Part shown: positions 59,794-64,000 of the stretch, in pieces | Layout of the letters: each line of letters opens with the position of its first letter | How positions within the stretch are numbered: the stretch's first letter is position 1 | Source of the DNA: Armatimonadota bacterium | GTDB taxonomy: Bacteria; Armatimonadota; Chthonomonadetes; Chthonomonadales; CAJBBX01 | Assembly: GCA_026392115.1 (NCBI GenBank) | Contig: JAPLCQ010000143.1 | Span: forward strand, 819 to 64,818 | Direction: 5' to 3' | Length of the DNA: 64,000 bases | Translations under genes and position numbers: made by a program | The notes under the pieces: generated by a model | The model's input: the letters and a program-made list of their open reading frames with translations, nothing else | The model's database searches: none | What the model was told of the DNA's origin: nothing

Positions 59794-60948
59794 CTACGGC
59801 TTCGAGCGCAGCCACTCCAACGTGAAGGCGGCGAGGACGATCCGCTCGTAGGGGCCCTTCTCGCCTGTCTCATAGAGCAGGCCGATCCGGCCGTCGGGCA
59901 GGGCGGCAAGGCAGGAGTAGGCGGCGGGCAGCGGGCTGATCAGCCGCGCCACCGGCCAGGTCGCTCCATCATCAAGGCTGGCGCGCACGGTCATCCGCTC
60001 GCGCCGGGTGGAGGCGGCGTTGGAGAAGAGCAGCACACCGGGCTTCCCGTGCGCGGGCCATGTGAGCCGCCTCAGGCTCGCCTGGCAGATCGGGTCCACC
60101 AACTCCGGTACGATCCGTTGCTCCGTCCATGTGGCGCCGCCGTCGCGGCTGATAGCCGTCTGGCGGGCCTTCCGGGTAGGGTCGTAGCTCCGCATGTTGA
60201 GCATCAGCGCCCCGTCGGCCAGCTCCGCCGCCTCGCACTCATTGACCTGGTCGGCAGGCGTCGTGCCGCCCAACCGCCAGGTGCGGCCCTGGTCGTCCGA
60301 GAAGATGACATGCGAGTAGTACCGCTTCGTCTTCGCCTCTATGTGGTCGCAGGGGATGACGAGGCGCCCCCGGTGCGGCCCCCGCTCGATCTGGACGCCC
60401 GCGCCGGGCCCTGTGGCATACCAGGTCCAGTCGGGCGGCTTCACGGAGGGGGTGATCTCGCGCGGCTCACTCCAGCTCAGCCCGTCGTCGCGGCTCACGA
60501 GGGCGAAGACGCGCCGAGTATCCCTGGCGGCCTGCTCGACGATCTGTGCCTCGTGGTCGTCGCCCAGGTTCCATGTGGTGAGTAGCCAGATGTCGCCGGT
60601 GCCGCGGTCCACCACGGGGCAGGGGTTGCCGCAGGTGTTGCCGCCGTCGGACCAGACCACCTGCATCTCCGACCATGTCCGTCCGCCGTCCGTGGAGCGG
60701 CGCATGACCAGGTCGATGTCGCCTGCATCGGATGATGACCCGCGCCGCCCCTCGCAGAAGGCCAGCAGCGTCCCGCGCGTCGTTACGGCGAGCGCCGGGA
60801 TGCGATACGTATGGCGGCCCGCGTCGCCCGCGGCGAAGAGCGTCTGCGAGGTGAACGGACCTTCGTCAGCCACGGCCGCCGAGGCAGGCGGCACGGCAAG
60901 CGCCAGGGTCACCACTATGAGAGAGCCCACCTGCCGGAGCGCCTCCAC
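59794..60948 (-). CDS. Sialidase (GH33, BNR/Asp-box)
   Basis: YRIP motif; Asp boxes STDGGRTW, SRDDGLSW, SDDQGRTW, SRDGGATW, SLDDGATW; NEC; AYS. Confidence 0.92.
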   Translation of the reverse strand: MEALRQVGSLIVVTLALAVPPASAAVADEGPFTSQTLFAAGDAGRHTYRIPALAVTTRGTLLAFCEGRRGSSSDAGDIDLVMRRSTDGGRTWSEMQVVWSDGGNTCGNPCPVVDRGTGDIWLLTTWNLGDDHEAQIVEQAARDTRRVFALVSRDDGLSWSEPREITPSVKPPDWTWYATGPGAGVQIERGPHRGRLVIPCDHIEAKTKRYYSHVIFSDDQGRTWRLGGTTPADQVNECEAAELADGALMLNMRSYDPTRKARQTAISRDGGATWTEQRIVPELVDPICQASLRRLTWPAHGKPGVLLFSNAASTRRERMTVRASLDDGATWPVARLISPLPAAYSCLAALPDGRIGLLYETGEKGPYERIVLAAFTLEWLRSKP

Positions 60949-60951
60949 TAC

Positions 60952-62232
60952 CTATCGAGCGGACTGGGCCGACCGCATGCGCACGGCAGCGGTCCGCCGC
61001 CAGACGAGCCACGGCGCGCCCGGGAGCAGGCTCTCCTGGATTCGTTGGACGAGGCTACCCGGCGCCGGGTCCATGGCCTGCAGCAGCGCCGACAGCGCAG
61101 CGGCCAGCATCGGCGGTTGGAGAAGCCACGGCCTGCCGGACGGGCCGCTCGGGTTCGGCGCCACCCATCCGGAGGCGTAGGGGATCGCCGAAACGCCCTT
61201 GCGCTTGGGCGCGATGCCGCCGCCGGCCAGCACTTGCAGGGCCAGCACGTCGGGATGGCCGGGCAACTCGGCCGCAAGCTCCTTCGCCAGCGACCGCAGG
61301 AGCCGGGCGTCCGGTTTGGGCTTCGCCGCTTCCACGTACGCCGTCAACAGGGCCAGCATGGGGTTGTCCGTGGTGATCCACCGGCCGCTCTTGACCTCGG
61401 CCAGCGGCGCCGTGGGTCGGCCTTGCGCCAGGCCCTGGCGTACGAGCTCGGTGAGGCGCAACAACTCCTGCGACTGCGCCGGGTCCCGCGCGCCGCCAGG
61501 CCTGCCGTAGTAGATCGCGGCTTCGGTCAGGGCGGCTCGGCGAACCGAGCGCTGCTTCGGCGCCGCGTCGGCGTCGCCCTCACCGGCAGGCGCACTGCGC
61601 CGGACCGAGGCGGTGGAGAGGATCACCTGCGTCTGCCAGCCGGGGCAAAGGTGTACGGCCATGCACTGCACGCCGCTCAGGCCTGTGTCCACGCAGATCA
61701 GGTGCATGCCGGGATCGGCCTCCGCGTGGAGCCAGCCGACGCCGACCTCCTGCATCCGCTCGCCCTCCTTGTCCATGGCGCCCAGCGTTCGGCCCTCGGC
61801 GTCCTGCACCGTGATGCCGGCCCAGGGCTCGGTTCGGCTCTCCTTTCCGCGGACGATGGAGGGGTCGCGCACCATCACGAAGAGGCTCGCGCCGCTACCC
61901 CAGTGGAGTGACGGCGGGTCGGCTGCCCGGGCCCAGGCTGCCTGATGCGGCTCGTGCGTGGTCAGTGTGCCCGGCAACGGCGCGGCGCTCTGGAACGCGA
62001 TCGGTCGGGCCGCCACGGTCGCCCCGTCGCCCTCCTGCACCTCGACGAGTGTGTCCTCCATCGAGGCGCCTGAGCGAAGTCGCACCTTGTAGATGCCCGG
62101 CCGCACCTGCACGTCCAGCGAGCCCATCCCCGAGGCCACCCGGCTCAGAGACGAGTCGATGACGAAGATCTCCGTTGCCTCTTCGGCGGCGGTCACGCGG
62201 AGCGGGGCCTTCCTGTTACGGGATATCGACAC
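60952..62232 (-). CDS. Hypothetical caspase-associated protein (two small beta-sandwich repeats + helical C-terminus)
   Basis: GGAGG-N6-GTG start inside the caspase 3' end; LDVQVRPGIYKV and LHAEADPGMHLI repeats; NPML, HPDV, PPML, PWLVW motifs. Confidence 0.75.
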   Translation of the reverse strand: MSISRNRKAPLRVTAAEEATEIFVIDSSLSRVASGMGSLDVQVRPGIYKVRLRSGASMEDTLVEVQEGDGATVAARPIAFQSAAPLPGTLTTHEPHQAAWARAADPPSLHWGSGASLFVMVRDPSIVRGKESRTEPWAGITVQDAEGRTLGAMDKEGERMQEVGVGWLHAEADPGMHLICVDTGLSGVQCMAVHLCPGWQTQVILSTASVRRSAPAGEGDADAAPKQRSVRRAALTEAAIYYGRPGGARDPAQSQELLRLTELVRQGLAQGRPTAPLAEVKSGRWITTDNPMLALLTAYVEAAKPKPDARLLRSLAKELAAELPGHPDVLALQVLAGGGIAPKRKGVSAIPYASGWVAPNPSGPSGRPWLLQPPMLAAALSALLQAMDPAPGSLVQRIQESLLPGAPWLVWRRTAAVRMRSAQSAR

Positions 62233-63247
62233 GGGTCACCTCCCCGATGGCCTGGAAGAGCGTTGATCGCCCTGTGCCCTGCACGACGGCCTTGTAGAGC
62301 CCTGCCGGCAGCGAAACGTCGGCCTGTCCGCCAGCCATCGTCGTGGTCAGGCACTCTTTGCCGTTGCCGCCAAGGACCACGACCTCCGCCGCCCCTGCCC
62401 CGACGGCCATGAGGGTCACGGCGGTGGCGGGCTGCTTGACGGTCGGCGGCCTGCGGGCCATGAGCAGGTCACGGGCCGGCTCCACGGCGATGGTCGGCGG
62501 CAGGACGTCCGGCCCGGCGATATCTGGCCACGCATTGTGGATGTAGTCGCGGACGTGCGTGGCCATGACGCAGCCGTCGTCGGCTCCGGGAGCCTGGCGC
62601 AGCGCCTCCAGGAGCAGGTAGCTGAAGATGCCGCGCACCTGCTTGTCGGCGCCCAGCGGCTTCTCGCGGGCCTTGGCGCCGGCAGGCGATGCGTAGGCGT
62701 AGAACGTGCGCACACGTGCCGCGCGCGCCGCGTTGACGAGCGGCATCAGGATCGGCTCAGCGATGCTGGTCGTCAGCGACAGGTCGGCGCAGGCGTCGCA
62801 GATCAGCACCAGTTCGTCGAACAGACCCGCGCGGACGGCCCAGTTGGCGTACCGGGTGGCGGCGATGTGGTCAGGGGCGAGAGTGGTGGCATTGGCCGAG
62901 TAGACGGCGCGCTCGATGGCCGTCGTGTTGCCCATGAAGCCGTGTCCGCTGAAGTAGAGGGTGAGGCGTCGACCAGCCGGTGTCCGTACGCGTCCGGTGT
63001 CGTCGGTGACGATGTCGGTGAACCGGTCGCGGAACTGGTCCGCGGTGGGTTGCGCCTGTGAGGCCCGCGCGGGCATCGGGGGATGGAAGCAGCCGGTGGT
63101 GAGGCGCGCCACGTTGGCCGGGTCCACCCCTCCGCCCTCCGGCAGGGCCAGCCATGCGGCGAACTCGTCGGCATCGCGCTGAGCCCCTTGCAGCGGCGAG
63201 ATGCCCGGGTAGAGGTCGATCCCCACCACGATGGCGTAGTCGGTCAT
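62216..63247 (-). CDS. Caspase-like (peptidase C14) protease with C-terminal beta-sandwich
   Basis: YAIVVGIDLYP..LQGA..DA; catalytic His in YFSGHG; catalytic Cys in ICDACA; GIFSYLLLEAL. Confidence 0.9.
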   Translation of the reverse strand: MTDYAIVVGIDLYPGISPLQGAQRDADEFAAWLALPEGGGVDPANVARLTTGCFHPPMPARASQAQPTADQFRDRFTDIVTDDTGRVRTPAGRRLTLYFSGHGFMGNTTAIERAVYSANATTLAPDHIAATRYANWAVRAGLFDELVLICDACADLSLTTSIAEPILMPLVNAARAARVRTFYAYASPAGAKAREKPLGADKQVRGIFSYLLLEALRQAPGADDGCVMATHVRDYIHNAWPDIAGPDVLPPTIAVEPARDLLMARRPPTVKQPATAVTLMAVGAGAAEVVVLGGNGKECLTTTMAGGQADVSLPAGLYKAVVQGTGRSTLFQAIGEVTRVDIP

Positions 63248-64000
63248 GGGCGTGGCGCGATGCCGTGTCTCAGGATGTGGGCCACGCTTCTGATGGTCAC
63301 TTCCTCATCATCGAAGTCGCCGTGGCGCCTGGACTTCGACTCGTAGCCCGGAACCCCGACCTGCTCCGACCAGACCGCGGCCATGGCCCCTGTGGAGCCG
63401 ATCTCGCGGCGAGCCCACGCCACGTCGGGGAAGTGGGCGGCGTCGAAGGTCGCCTGCTCGACCAGGAACCGCTGCATGCCCATGATCGGCGCGTCGACCT
63501 CCGGCTCCAGGATGCCGGAGACGCAGTAGAGCAGCGAGTGCGGGTAGAGTGCGCGCCCCACCGGGCCGATGACCGGCTCGGCCATGGCGTCGGCCCGCTC
63601 CACTGCGTCCTGCATCCCGAAGACGCGCACGCCGAGGATGCGTGACTTGTGGGCGTCGTAGGCGCGCTTGAAGAGCGACGTGGTGCAGGCCGGGGCAAGC
63701 AGTACGAGATCGAAGCTCAAGGCCGGGGCATGGCGGGCCGCCGCGTCCAGGATGTGGCAGATGTAGACGGCTCCGGTGGAGTGGCCGATGAGGGTGACGC
63801 GCGGCGCGTCCGCCTCGTCAGGGTACCGGGCGCCCATGCGCTTCAGGAGGGCCGTGAGGCCGGCCTCGTTGCCCGGTTTCTGATCGTCCCCGCAGGCCTG
63901 CTCTGTGTCGAGCTTCATCTGCTCCCAGAGCCACTCCTTGCCCACGCGGGCCAGGCCGAACGAACGGTAGAGCTCCTCGATGACGGTGCCGAGGAATCCG
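63244..64000 (-). CDS. Alpha/beta-hydrolase domain protein, C-terminal part only (gene begins beyond the right edge)
   Basis: Frame is open to the window edge (GFLGTVIEELYRSFGLARVGKEW); nucleophile elbow LIGHSTG, LLAPAC, HGDFDD; ATGA overlap with the caspase. Confidence 0.85.
   Translation of the reverse strand, partial: GFLGTVIEELYRSFGLARVGKEWLWEQMKLDTEQACGDDQKPGNEAGLTALLKRMGARYPDEADAPRVTLIGHSTGAVYICHILDAAARHAPALSFDLVLLAPACTTSLFKRAYDAHKSRILGVRVFGMQDAVERADAMAEPVIGPVGRALYPHSLLYCVSGILEPEVDAPIMGMQRFLVEQATFDAAHFPDVAWARREIGSTGAMAAVWSEQVGVPGYESKSRRHGDFDDEEVTIRSVAHILRHGIAPRP

Follow-up and report, generated by a model that had tools for sequence, protein, structure and literature searches.

At one end of a 64,000-nucleotide stretch of an Armatimonadota genome (assembly GCA_026392115.1, contig JAPLCQ010000143.1), the whole of which we call the window, three coupled genes lie on the minus strand. 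In reading order they encode an alpha/beta-hydrolase, a caspase-like protease and a 426-residue protein of an undescribed family, here termed the third protein. We discuss the evidence that they form a conserved and mobile cassette in which the hydrolase is likely to be a substrate of the caspase.

The three genes as a conserved unit

The hydrolase gene runs off the end of the window. Reading the contig on past that point, as the first-pass annotation of this DNA had proposed, gave the full gene of 500 amino acids at window positions 63244-64746. Codons 1-249 lie beyond the window end and include the acidic insert and the two predicted cleavage sites discussed below, between R124 and G125 and between R220 and G221. 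The features inside the window are as follows.

63244..64000, minus strand: 3' part of the hydrolase gene (codons 250-500), an open reading frame (ORF) open at its 5' end, 63244-63999, with 251 amino acids inside the window
63778..63780, minus strand: codon of hydrolase Ser323, the GHSTG nucleophile; invariant, following strand 317-322 of the model
63607-63609, minus strand: codon of hydrolase Asp380, the probable acid; at least 90% conserved, following strand 370-378 of the model
63322..63324, minus strand: codon of hydrolase His475 (HGDFD), the putative catalytic histidine; invariant
62216..63247, minus strand: C14 caspase/metacaspase-like protease gene, 343 amino acids (PF00656)
62942..62944, minus strand: codon of caspase His102 (GHG); invariant in 9 of 9 sequences and aligned with the histidine of the metacaspase SGHG motif
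62789..62791, minus strand: codon of caspase Cys153 (D-x-C); invariant in 9 of 9 sequences, as is Asp151
62219..62464, minus strand: C-terminal domain of the caspase, residues 262-343, homologous to domain N1 of the third protein (hhalign)
62236..62243, minus strand: Shine-Dalgarno-like GGAGGTGA in the 3' end of the caspase gene, 3 nt ahead of the GTG where the third gene begins
60952..62232, minus strand: third gene, 426 amino acids, GTG start; undescribed family, proposed partner (sensor or adaptor) of the caspase
61978..62232, minus strand: domain N1 of the third protein, residues 1-85; transthyretin-like/carboxypeptidase-regulatory-like beta-sandwich with a PGIYKVR motif
61588..61977, minus strand: domain N2 of the third protein, residues 86-215; second beta-sandwich, homologous to N1
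60955..61587, minus strand: C-terminal helix-rich domain of the third protein, residues 216-426; conserved NPML, HPDV and PPML, no recognised fold

The hydrolase stop and the caspase start overlap as ATGA, and the third gene begins 17 nt inside the caspase gene. Both junctions had been noticed in the first-pass annotation and were confirmed. Similar overlaps occur in distant loci, with 4 nt shared by hydrolase and caspase in L003-L006 and 17-20 nt shared by caspase and third gene in L003, L004, L005, L006, L008 and L011. Because these overlaps recur, the GTG start of the third gene is probably real. The host genome has a single copy of each gene. All three are real genes under purifying selection, the ratio of nonsynonymous to synonymous substitution rates (dN/dS) among three Chthonomonas-type genomes being 0.07-0.20 for the cassette as a whole, 0.12-0.20 for the third gene and 0.04-0.05 for the adjacent hslU. 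A scan for promoters and terminators found 0 sites, the means for shuffled sequence being 0.4 and 3.1. None of the three proteins contains a signal-peptide-like or transmembrane-grade hydrophobic stretch, in keeping with the earlier remark that the caspase and the 426-residue protein have no signal peptide; the adjoining sialidase has one.

Related loci were sought in species-representative genomes by three scans, whose locus sets overlap in part. The first scan with the third gene gave nine loci in eight phyla. All seven of these that had enough DNA contained hydrolase, caspase and third gene, and the other two were cut by a contig end. When the hydrolase was used as the anchor, 44 of 63 loci carried the full trio on one strand and in the same order; among the other 19, two had the caspase and then a contig end, four ended after the hydrolase, and 13 had neither partner despite downstream DNA. 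A second scan with the third gene found the full trio at 21 of 24 loci, the remaining three being cut at the contig start. The trio is thus syntenic elsewhere, one of the points on which the first-pass annotation had let its proposal depend, and the trio loci span more than 15 phyla. Over the 44 loci the pairwise distances of the three proteins are correlated (r 0.79-0.83, with 0 of 2000 permutations as high), which fits co-inheritance as a block. We regard it as nearly certain that the trio is a functional unit.

The cassette is also patchily distributed. Of 301 Armatimonadota genomes sampled, 7 carry the third gene, counting that of the window; these include 3 of 3 in its own genus, and the gene is found in 0 of 12 from other genera of the family. 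A quick maximum-likelihood tree of 59 hydrolase sequences, with 5 fragments shorter than 300 residues left out, mixes phyla, the Chthonomonas clade falling among Betaproteobacteria, Verrucomicrobiota and Myxococcota. Beside some cassettes there are genes of mobile elements, namely a Tn7-type TnsD/TniQ (L011), an ISL3 transposase (L008) and an IS21 element (a Mesorhizobium plasmid). The cassette is widespread and horizontally mobile; in the host genome it is nothing out of the ordinary, a mobile module of recent acquisition. Its closest public relatives are in metagenome-assembled genomes (MAGs) labelled uncultured Chthonomonas sp., Armatimonadota. Among cultured bacteria it occurs in Calidithermus roseus NBRC 110900, Thiocystis violacea DSM 208, Hahella sp. 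NBU794, Marinicella sp. W31 and Roseovarius sp. D22-M7. Two pairs of loci from MAGs labelled Verrucomicrobia and Myxococcales (L017/L005 and L018/L006) have near-identical cassettes, with hydrolase branches of 0.04-0.09 and the same 1070-residue unknown gene downstream; this could be due to very recent transfer or to a binning error.

Properties of the three proteins

The GHSTG motif and the C-terminal histidine of HGDFD that had been read from the hydrolase gene are present, and His322, Ser323, Gly325 and His475 are invariant both in an alignment of 8 sequences (8 of 8) and in 64 of 64 homologues, as is, in the 64, the HGG oxyanion motif His49-Gly50-Gly51. We infer a catalytic triad of Ser323, His475 and probably Asp380. 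The family itself is not represented in the collections searched: the Pfam matches were below threshold (Hydrolase_4, 19.2 bits against a cut-off of 27), NCBIfam and PADLOC gave none, and comparison with the sequences of solved structures returned nothing but nucleophile-elbow matches. The predicted structure has a predicted local distance difference test score (pLDDT) of 91.5 and a predicted template modelling score (pTM) of 0.92. Foldseek found no match to it at E <= 0.001. VIA-align against 48,161 chains gave 311 at Z >= 8, and the best 50 were all alpha/beta-fold hydrolases, led by PGAP1 (Z 11.9, root-mean-square deviation (rmsd) 3.8 A, 214 residues aligned) and a venom phospholipase A1 (Z 11.6, rmsd 3.6 A, 209 aligned). 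Judged by the model, the nearest solved folds are those of lipases, phospholipases and esterases. This agrees with the lipase-like half of the earlier suggestion of a membrane-damaging effector; damage to the membrane is one possibility among others.

The fold matches cover residues 1-500 yet align only about 165-214 residues, and the catalytic core would therefore be built from both ends of the chain around an insert. In the model this core consists of residues ~1-120 and ~250-500, interrupted by an acidic helical insert of 96 residues that contains 21 Asp and Glu against 7 Lys and Arg. At the borders of the insert the 8-sequence alignment has an invariant R220-G221 and, at positions 124-125, a basic residue followed by Gly, Ala or Ser, with a variable, indel-rich stretch between them. 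Both sites are in coil in the model and flank helices 133-206, and the 10-residue means of pLDDT dip there to 64 and 68.

These two positions differ between hydrolases with and without a caspase neighbour. We counted Arg or Lys followed by Gly, Ala or Ser at site 1 (R124-G125) and site 2 (R220-G221) in the window and the 63 hydrolase-anchored loci, comparing 47 caspase-linked with 13 caspase-less sequences and keeping apart the four loci that end after the hydrolase. Site 1 is present in 42 of 47 caspase-linked and 3 of 13 caspase-less hydrolases, site 2 in 46 of 47 and 6 of 13, and both sites together in 42 of 47 and 2 of 13. Three of the four truncated loci have both. At the two sites the hydrolases of two Armatimonadota chromosomes that have no caspase neighbour (L038 and L039) read R-P and I-P. 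From these sequence counts and the model, the hydrolase looks like a caspase substrate, likely a zymogen cut twice, with predicted cleavage between R124 and G125 and between R220 and G221. The first-pass annotation had proposed that the caspase cleaves or is regulated by one of its neighbours; the two sites, mostly lost in caspase-less relatives, point to the hydrolase as the neighbour that would be cleaved. A third candidate site at R247 (G-R-[DG]-H-G) was rejected, since its basic position is kept in caspase-linked and caspase-less hydrolases alike and is on that account structural.

The caspase-less hydrolases are scattered over the tree, requiring at least seven changes for nine entries, and the protease partner has been repeatedly lost or replaced. 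Other proteases occur in its place: a fused subtilase (L050), a CHAT-kinase protein that follows the hydrolase (L053), a trypsin-like gene nearby (L065), a Trypsin_2 fusion (P0274) and papain-like partial relatives (P0277-P0279). Such swapping of proteases is typical of effectors of this kind. A MAG assigned to Nitrospirota has a divergent second hydrolase paralogue about 1 kb downstream of the trio (L067, 11230-12678), with E-values of 3e-13 against the profile of the cassette hydrolases and 1.8e-7 against DUF900.

The caspase matches Pfam PF00656 over residues 4-234 with 27.2 bits (cut-off 21.4, E 3.8e-6), and its His/Cys dyad is intact, as first read; His102, Cys153 and also Asp151 are invariant in all nine aligned sequences. 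As a single sequence it has no match among the sequences of solved structures. A profile of the family finds metacaspases as its best matches there, AtMC4 at E 1.3e-3 and TbMCA2 at 3.1e-3 (range to 3.6e-3), with the conserved Asp25 aligned with the metacaspase N-D motif and the histidine of GHG with that of SGHG. The counterpart of Asp25 presumably lines the S1 pocket of metacaspases. On these alignments the enzyme is expected to be a metacaspase-like C14 protease directed to Arg and Lys, with a basic P1 preference. It scores 28.2 bits against the EACC1-associated caspase model NF047832, below the cut-off of 140.

Beyond its catalytic domain the caspase has only a predicted beta-sandwich of about 80 residues and no fused sensor such as beta-transducin repeats or a STAND NTPase. 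Compared by hhalign with domain N1 of the third protein, this C-terminal domain gives a probability of 97.2% (E 2.9e-11), and the whole-protein profiles match at 78% (E 1.8e-5). N1 and N2 of the third protein match each other at 90.3% (E 1.5e-6). Controls with the helical domain and the caspase catalytic domain remained below 1%.

The 426-residue protein had been described as having no recognisable motif, and it indeed matched no Pfam, NCBIfam or PADLOC family; against the sequences of solved structures there was no match either (best E 0.089). The family is large all the same. A word-indexed search gave 12 relatives, and phmmer against 1.84 billion representatives gave 1151 at E <= 1e-3, 664 at <= 1e-10 and 51 at <= 1e-30, mostly of 480-540 residues. 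The predicted structure (pLDDT 91.1, pTM 0.91) has two beta-sandwiches (~1-85 and 86-215) followed by the helix-rich part (216-426). N1 has the transthyretin-like/carboxypeptidase-regulatory-like fold, its structural matches including the best, at Z 9.7 (rmsd 2.2 A over 79 residues), and another at Z 9.4 (1.9 A over 69), with 7 chains at Z >= 8. Foldseek with the whole model gave generic tandem immunoglobulin (Ig)-like matches only, and the structure searches barely probed the helix-rich domain. A weak lead (score 0.86) from one homologue to Pfam PF27295, Y4kD_C, is unconfirmed, and the literature on Y4kD held nothing relevant.

In some relatives the caspase with its C-terminal domain is fused to N1, N2 and the helical domain in a single protein (P0131, P0124 and a 901-residue protein of a Sinorhizobium plasmid), and in L046 the caspase and third gene form one ORF. 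The gene upstream of the Sinorhizobium fusion encodes an M12 metallopeptidase, not the hydrolase.

Past residue 410 the third proteins carry tails with a median length of 118 residues. The tail of the window copy has 16, and only 2 of 72 third proteins, this copy and a close relative, have fewer than 40. The tails give weak winged-helix matches to six families, each in one or two of the 72 members. Larger heads occur elsewhere, among them pYEATS, RRM, HATPase_c, a 3-keto-disaccharide hydrolase (3keto-disac_hyd, P0111), an astacin-like domain (P0151), a GMC oxidoreductase (L055 and L057) and a phospholipase D (PLD)-like domain on a 1449-residue Mesorhizobium plasmid protein. If the head is the sensor, the headless copy of the window may be blind or differently controlled. 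The constant part contains no conserved exposed site of the Arg/Lys-Gly/Ala/Ser type, the only conserved one, R53, lying within the fold motif. R272 was considered as a cut site and rejected; the next residue here is Pro, and it is small in only 15 of 72 relatives. The PLD-like protein belongs to plasmid pOM4 of Mesorhizobium onobrychidis (L076, 3417-11351), where hydrolase, caspase and third protein are joined by a trypsin-like peptidase and adjoined by the IS21 element. In this copy the cassette is enlarged by a second protease and an enzyme head.

Neighbouring genes and proposed function

Upstream of the hydrolase gene, 35 nt away and behind an AAGGAGG, is hslU, encoding 481 residues (TIGR00390, 633.7 bits against a cut-off of 362). 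On the other side a gene for a BNR sialidase with a signal peptide (window 59794-60948) begins 3 nt past the stop of the third gene. Neither hslU nor the sialidase gene was accepted as a component of the system, each being beside the trio only in Chthonomonas relatives (two MAGs). No constant fourth gene, vWA or MoxR was found in the heterogeneous set of 21 neighbours of the first distant loci and 88 neighbours of 37 of the 44 trio loci (the nearest ORF upstream and up to two downstream per locus). The neighbours of the window likewise include no vWA or MoxR family, the AAA+ gene that adjoins the cassette being hslU.

The first-pass annotation had asked whether such loci lie near defence islands. 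PADLOC was applied to the first 124, from 27 loci, of 180 neighbouring ORFs that each encode at least 180 residues; the 180 came from 40 of 42 trio loci, two having none. It gave convincing matches in about five loci: HEC-05 (1e-88), a NACHT-FGE-sulfatase protein just upstream, in L028; PDC-S63 (4e-72) in L031; a DpdE/ZorD-like helicase in L016; a subtilase and a PRTase in L054; and a weak HerA in L030. The PADLOC run does not detect the cassette itself as a system.

Several recurring neighbours may be recorded here. AAA+ unfoldase genes are found near the cassette in three unrelated lineages: hslU in Chthonomonas (window 64782-66227; L002 5601-7046), clpX about 1 kb upstream on the same strand in a Chlorobiales MAG (L046, 3680-4999), and clpA about 1.8 kb downstream in Calidithermus roseus, where aat is directly upstream (L010, 2577-3149 and 8977-11196). 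This was seen after the fact and may be due to coincidence or to preferential insertion. The gene upstream of hslU (L002 7094-8347, window 66275-67528) resembles that of a succinyl-CoA synthetase beta subunit, as read from its N-terminal translation; it is not hslV, and hslU is here without an adjacent hslV. A TGase_elicitor gene of 530-552 codons adjoins the third gene in Crocosphaera (L007, 2503-4161), Desulfobacca (L009, 1727-3319) and Thiocystis (L027, 9958-11574), directly downstream and on the same strand in the former two, and may be an optional fourth component. In an Armatimonadaceae MAG (L071, 10716-11411) the trio is followed by NanE, of sialic-acid metabolism, which together with the sialidase of Chthonomonas may indicate a shared insertion neighbourhood within the phylum. 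In two loci only, a gene of the metallo-beta-lactamase (MBL) fold (Lactamase_B) directly precedes the hydrolase gene: that of Hahella sp. NBU794, where the trio is complete (L045, 4677-5726), and a caspase-less one of the Chloroflexia (L056, 5228-5926); these are of interest in that MBL nucleases are the other known protease-gated effectors.

We propose that the cassette encodes a latent hydrolase gated by the caspase, with the third protein as docking partner or sensor, and give this full mechanism a probability of roughly 0.55. The third protein would dock on the caspase through like-with-like pairing of their beta-sandwich domains and so hold or assemble it. A trigger, phage infection or some other stress, would be read by the helix-rich domain or, in other taxa, by the variable C-terminal head, and the caspase would thereby be licensed. 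It would then cut the hydrolase after R124 and R220 and remove the acidic plug, and the N- and C-terminal pieces would form an active enzyme of the esterase or lipase type that kills or arrests the cell. By analogy with characterised systems the role would be an immune one. A more far-reaching idea, which we offer only tentatively, is that the third protein founds a large family of caspase-docking switches, in which transthyretin-like domains pair with and license the caspase and swappable heads set what is sensed or delivered. It would then be a counterpart of Ig-domain-dependent activation as in the paracaspase MALT1 or in CanAB, and the headless, selected form of Chthonomonas would mean that the constant core is itself the switch.

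A number of observations count against the caspase-gated mechanism. The locus searches were seeded by short conserved peptide patterns and are biased to closer relatives, and the correlation of distances can come from shared descent alone. Five of the 47 caspase-linked hydrolases lack site 1 as defined, and the caspase-less L034, L040, L043, L044 and L056 retain R-G at site 2. The third protein of the window is headless, a head being present in 70 of 72 relatives. The defence-island signal is weak, with convincing PADLOC neighbours in so few trio loci; PADLOC recognises neither the hydrolase nor the third protein, and the second gene matches its generic caspase model alone; and the window's own neighbours are housekeeping and glycan genes.

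The modest defence signal and these surroundings therefore leave room for a role in stress or proteostasis. The cassette could be a module for self-destruction or remodelling not aimed at phage, possibly resembling a toxin-antitoxin pair, in which the third protein restrains the caspase until it is degraded by an AAA+ machine or folding stress sets in. Such a role would suit the position of the cassette 35 nt after hslU with no promoter-like site found, the clpX of L046, the aat and clpA that flank the Calidithermus roseus copy, and the housekeeping character of most neighbourhoods; the accessible part of Evans et al. 2025 (bioRxiv 10.1101/2025.11.14.688446) also raises a link of protease-effector pairs to general stress through EACC1-DnaK fusions. 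The unfoldase adjacency was, however, noticed post hoc and in three lineages only, and that of hslU is limited to Chthonomonas relatives. The patchy, cross-phylum and transposon-associated spread is typical of conflict systems, and the closest characterised relatives, as far as the accessible texts describe them, are phage defence systems or death effectors. We consider a stress module unlikely.

The third protein could instead be a second substrate or a carrier of effectors, from which the caspase releases or activates a variable enzyme head (PLD-like, metallopeptidase-like, GMC oxidoreductase or DUF1080). Polymorphic effectors commonly consist of a constant module to which exchangeable heads are attached, and the third proteins share this layout, some of their heads being enzyme domains (PLD-like, astacin-like P0151, 3keto-disac_hyd P0111 and the GMC oxidoreductase of L055 and L057). 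Most members, however, have a small tail with weak winged-helix matches or a head of the binding type (pYEATS, RRM), the constant part is without a conserved exposed basic/small site, and the window copy has no head to release yet is under purifying selection (dN/dS 0.12-0.20). Fusion to the caspase also suits a regulatory partner better than a substrate, and a carrier function seems to us decidedly unlikely. A last alternative turns the relationship of the first two genes around: the caspase would inactivate the hydrolase, or the hydrolase would be the upstream enzyme and might, for instance, deacylate or process either the caspase or the third protein, with the basic sites serving structure or binding. 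That the hydrolase gene is first in the operon and that some caspase-less hydrolases retain R-G at site 2 would accord with this, and activation by cleavage is, in this hydrolase family, a matter of inference. The two sites nevertheless lie in low-confidence coil around a variable, indel-rich acidic insert, they occur together in 42 of 47 caspase-linked and 2 of 13 caspase-less hydrolases, and the analogue that has been studied experimentally is, in the accessible text, activated by just such a double cut. This makes the reversed relationship highly improbable.

Death effectors gated by proteases are emerging as a major logic of bacterial immunity that parallels caspase signalling in animals, and how the proteases are switched on is mostly unexplained. 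The present cassette is compact and widespread, and its input would come through a protein of its own that folds well (model pLDDT 91) and in some relatives is joined to the caspase; this separate input protein makes it tractable for the study of protease triggering. It would also carry the principle of the caspase-cut hydrolase over to a larger family of hydrolases, whose cut sites can be clearly predicted and offer a route to the targets that such hydrolases attack.

Comparison with known systems

The pairing of a caspase with an alpha/beta-hydrolase has been described before. According to the accessible text of Kaur et al. 2020 (PMC7159879), in vWA-MoxR-VMAP conflict systems an alpha/beta-hydrolase gene is always found next to the caspase domain, and joint action of the two is predicted. 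The same pairing is found here. However, the neighbours scanned include no vWA, MoxR, VMAP or GTPase component beside the trio, and the constant companion is the third protein. No gasdermin gene, which would mark a bacterial gasdermin system, was found beside the protease: PADLOC left the hydrolase and the third protein without a match and assigned gene 2 only to its generic caspase model.

Among metacaspases and orthocaspases (C14B) the caspase shares the His/Cys dyad, and its N-terminal motif of the G-x-N/D-D-A type aligns with AtMC4 and TbMCA2. The match is weak (E ~1e-3) and confined to the N-terminal 100 residues, and the C-terminal beta-sandwich domain is specific to this cassette.

The closest parallel to the hydrolase is in Lysobacter capsici AZ78. 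In the accessible part of the study by Evans and coworkers (bioRxiv 10.1101/2025.11.14.688446), LcCaspase cuts the 296-residue LcHydrolase (WP_060410396.1) after R73 and R117, each followed by Gly, and the two outer fragments together are the toxic form; no substrate of LcHydrolase is identified by the authors there. Both loci place a caspase-like protease beside an alpha/beta-fold hydrolase, here co-oriented and with an ATGA overlap. Both hydrolases have two basic-Gly sites around an acidic middle piece (the acidity of that of LcHydrolase being judged by eye from the printed sequence), and both belong to effector families whose protease partner is interchangeable. Two differences weigh against carrying the Lysobacter mechanism over. 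The hydrolase here has 500 residues and an insert of 96, whereas LcHydrolase has 296 and a middle piece of 44, and the two are likened by architecture, not by sequence homology. LcCaspase has 594 residues with a long C-terminal region of its own and no separate third gene, whereas the caspase here has 343 and is accompanied by the third gene. In the Evans type the protease is fused to a sensor domain; here a gene of its own stands in for that domain, and fusion with the caspase is seen in some relatives only.

The layout of the cassette recalls Canu, the CanABC system of Klebsiella aerogenes, which according to the accessible text of Tuck et al. 2025 (PMC12799240) protects against phage T4. 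The caspase, CanA, ends in an Ig-like fold and purifies together with an accessory protein, CanB; as effector the system has an MBL pro-nuclease, which is gated by a pair of insertions carrying conserved small residues. Canu also consists of three genes that include a caspase and an accessory protein, and its effector is also a proenzyme gated by inserts, as predicted here. The Canu effector is nevertheless an MBL-fold nuclease and not an alpha/beta-hydrolase, and the window's cassette has no MBL gene. The nuclease gene is downstream of the caspase in Canu, and here the effector gene comes first. The third protein and CanB, which were compared by description, would be alike in role only.

The first-pass annotation had taken the locus for a candidate undescribed system, and this holds in part. 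The caspase/alpha-beta-hydrolase pairing (Kaur 2020), the principle of the caspase-cut hydrolase zymogen (Evans 2025) and three-gene caspase defence (Canu) are already known. A search of full-text literature found neither the third-protein family nor this three-gene architecture described, with the supplements of papers available only on bioRxiv, which might bear on the point, outside its coverage. The third-protein family, the three-gene architecture and this subfamily of hydrolases are new, and the cassette combines the effector type of the Evans system with the three-part layout of Canu.

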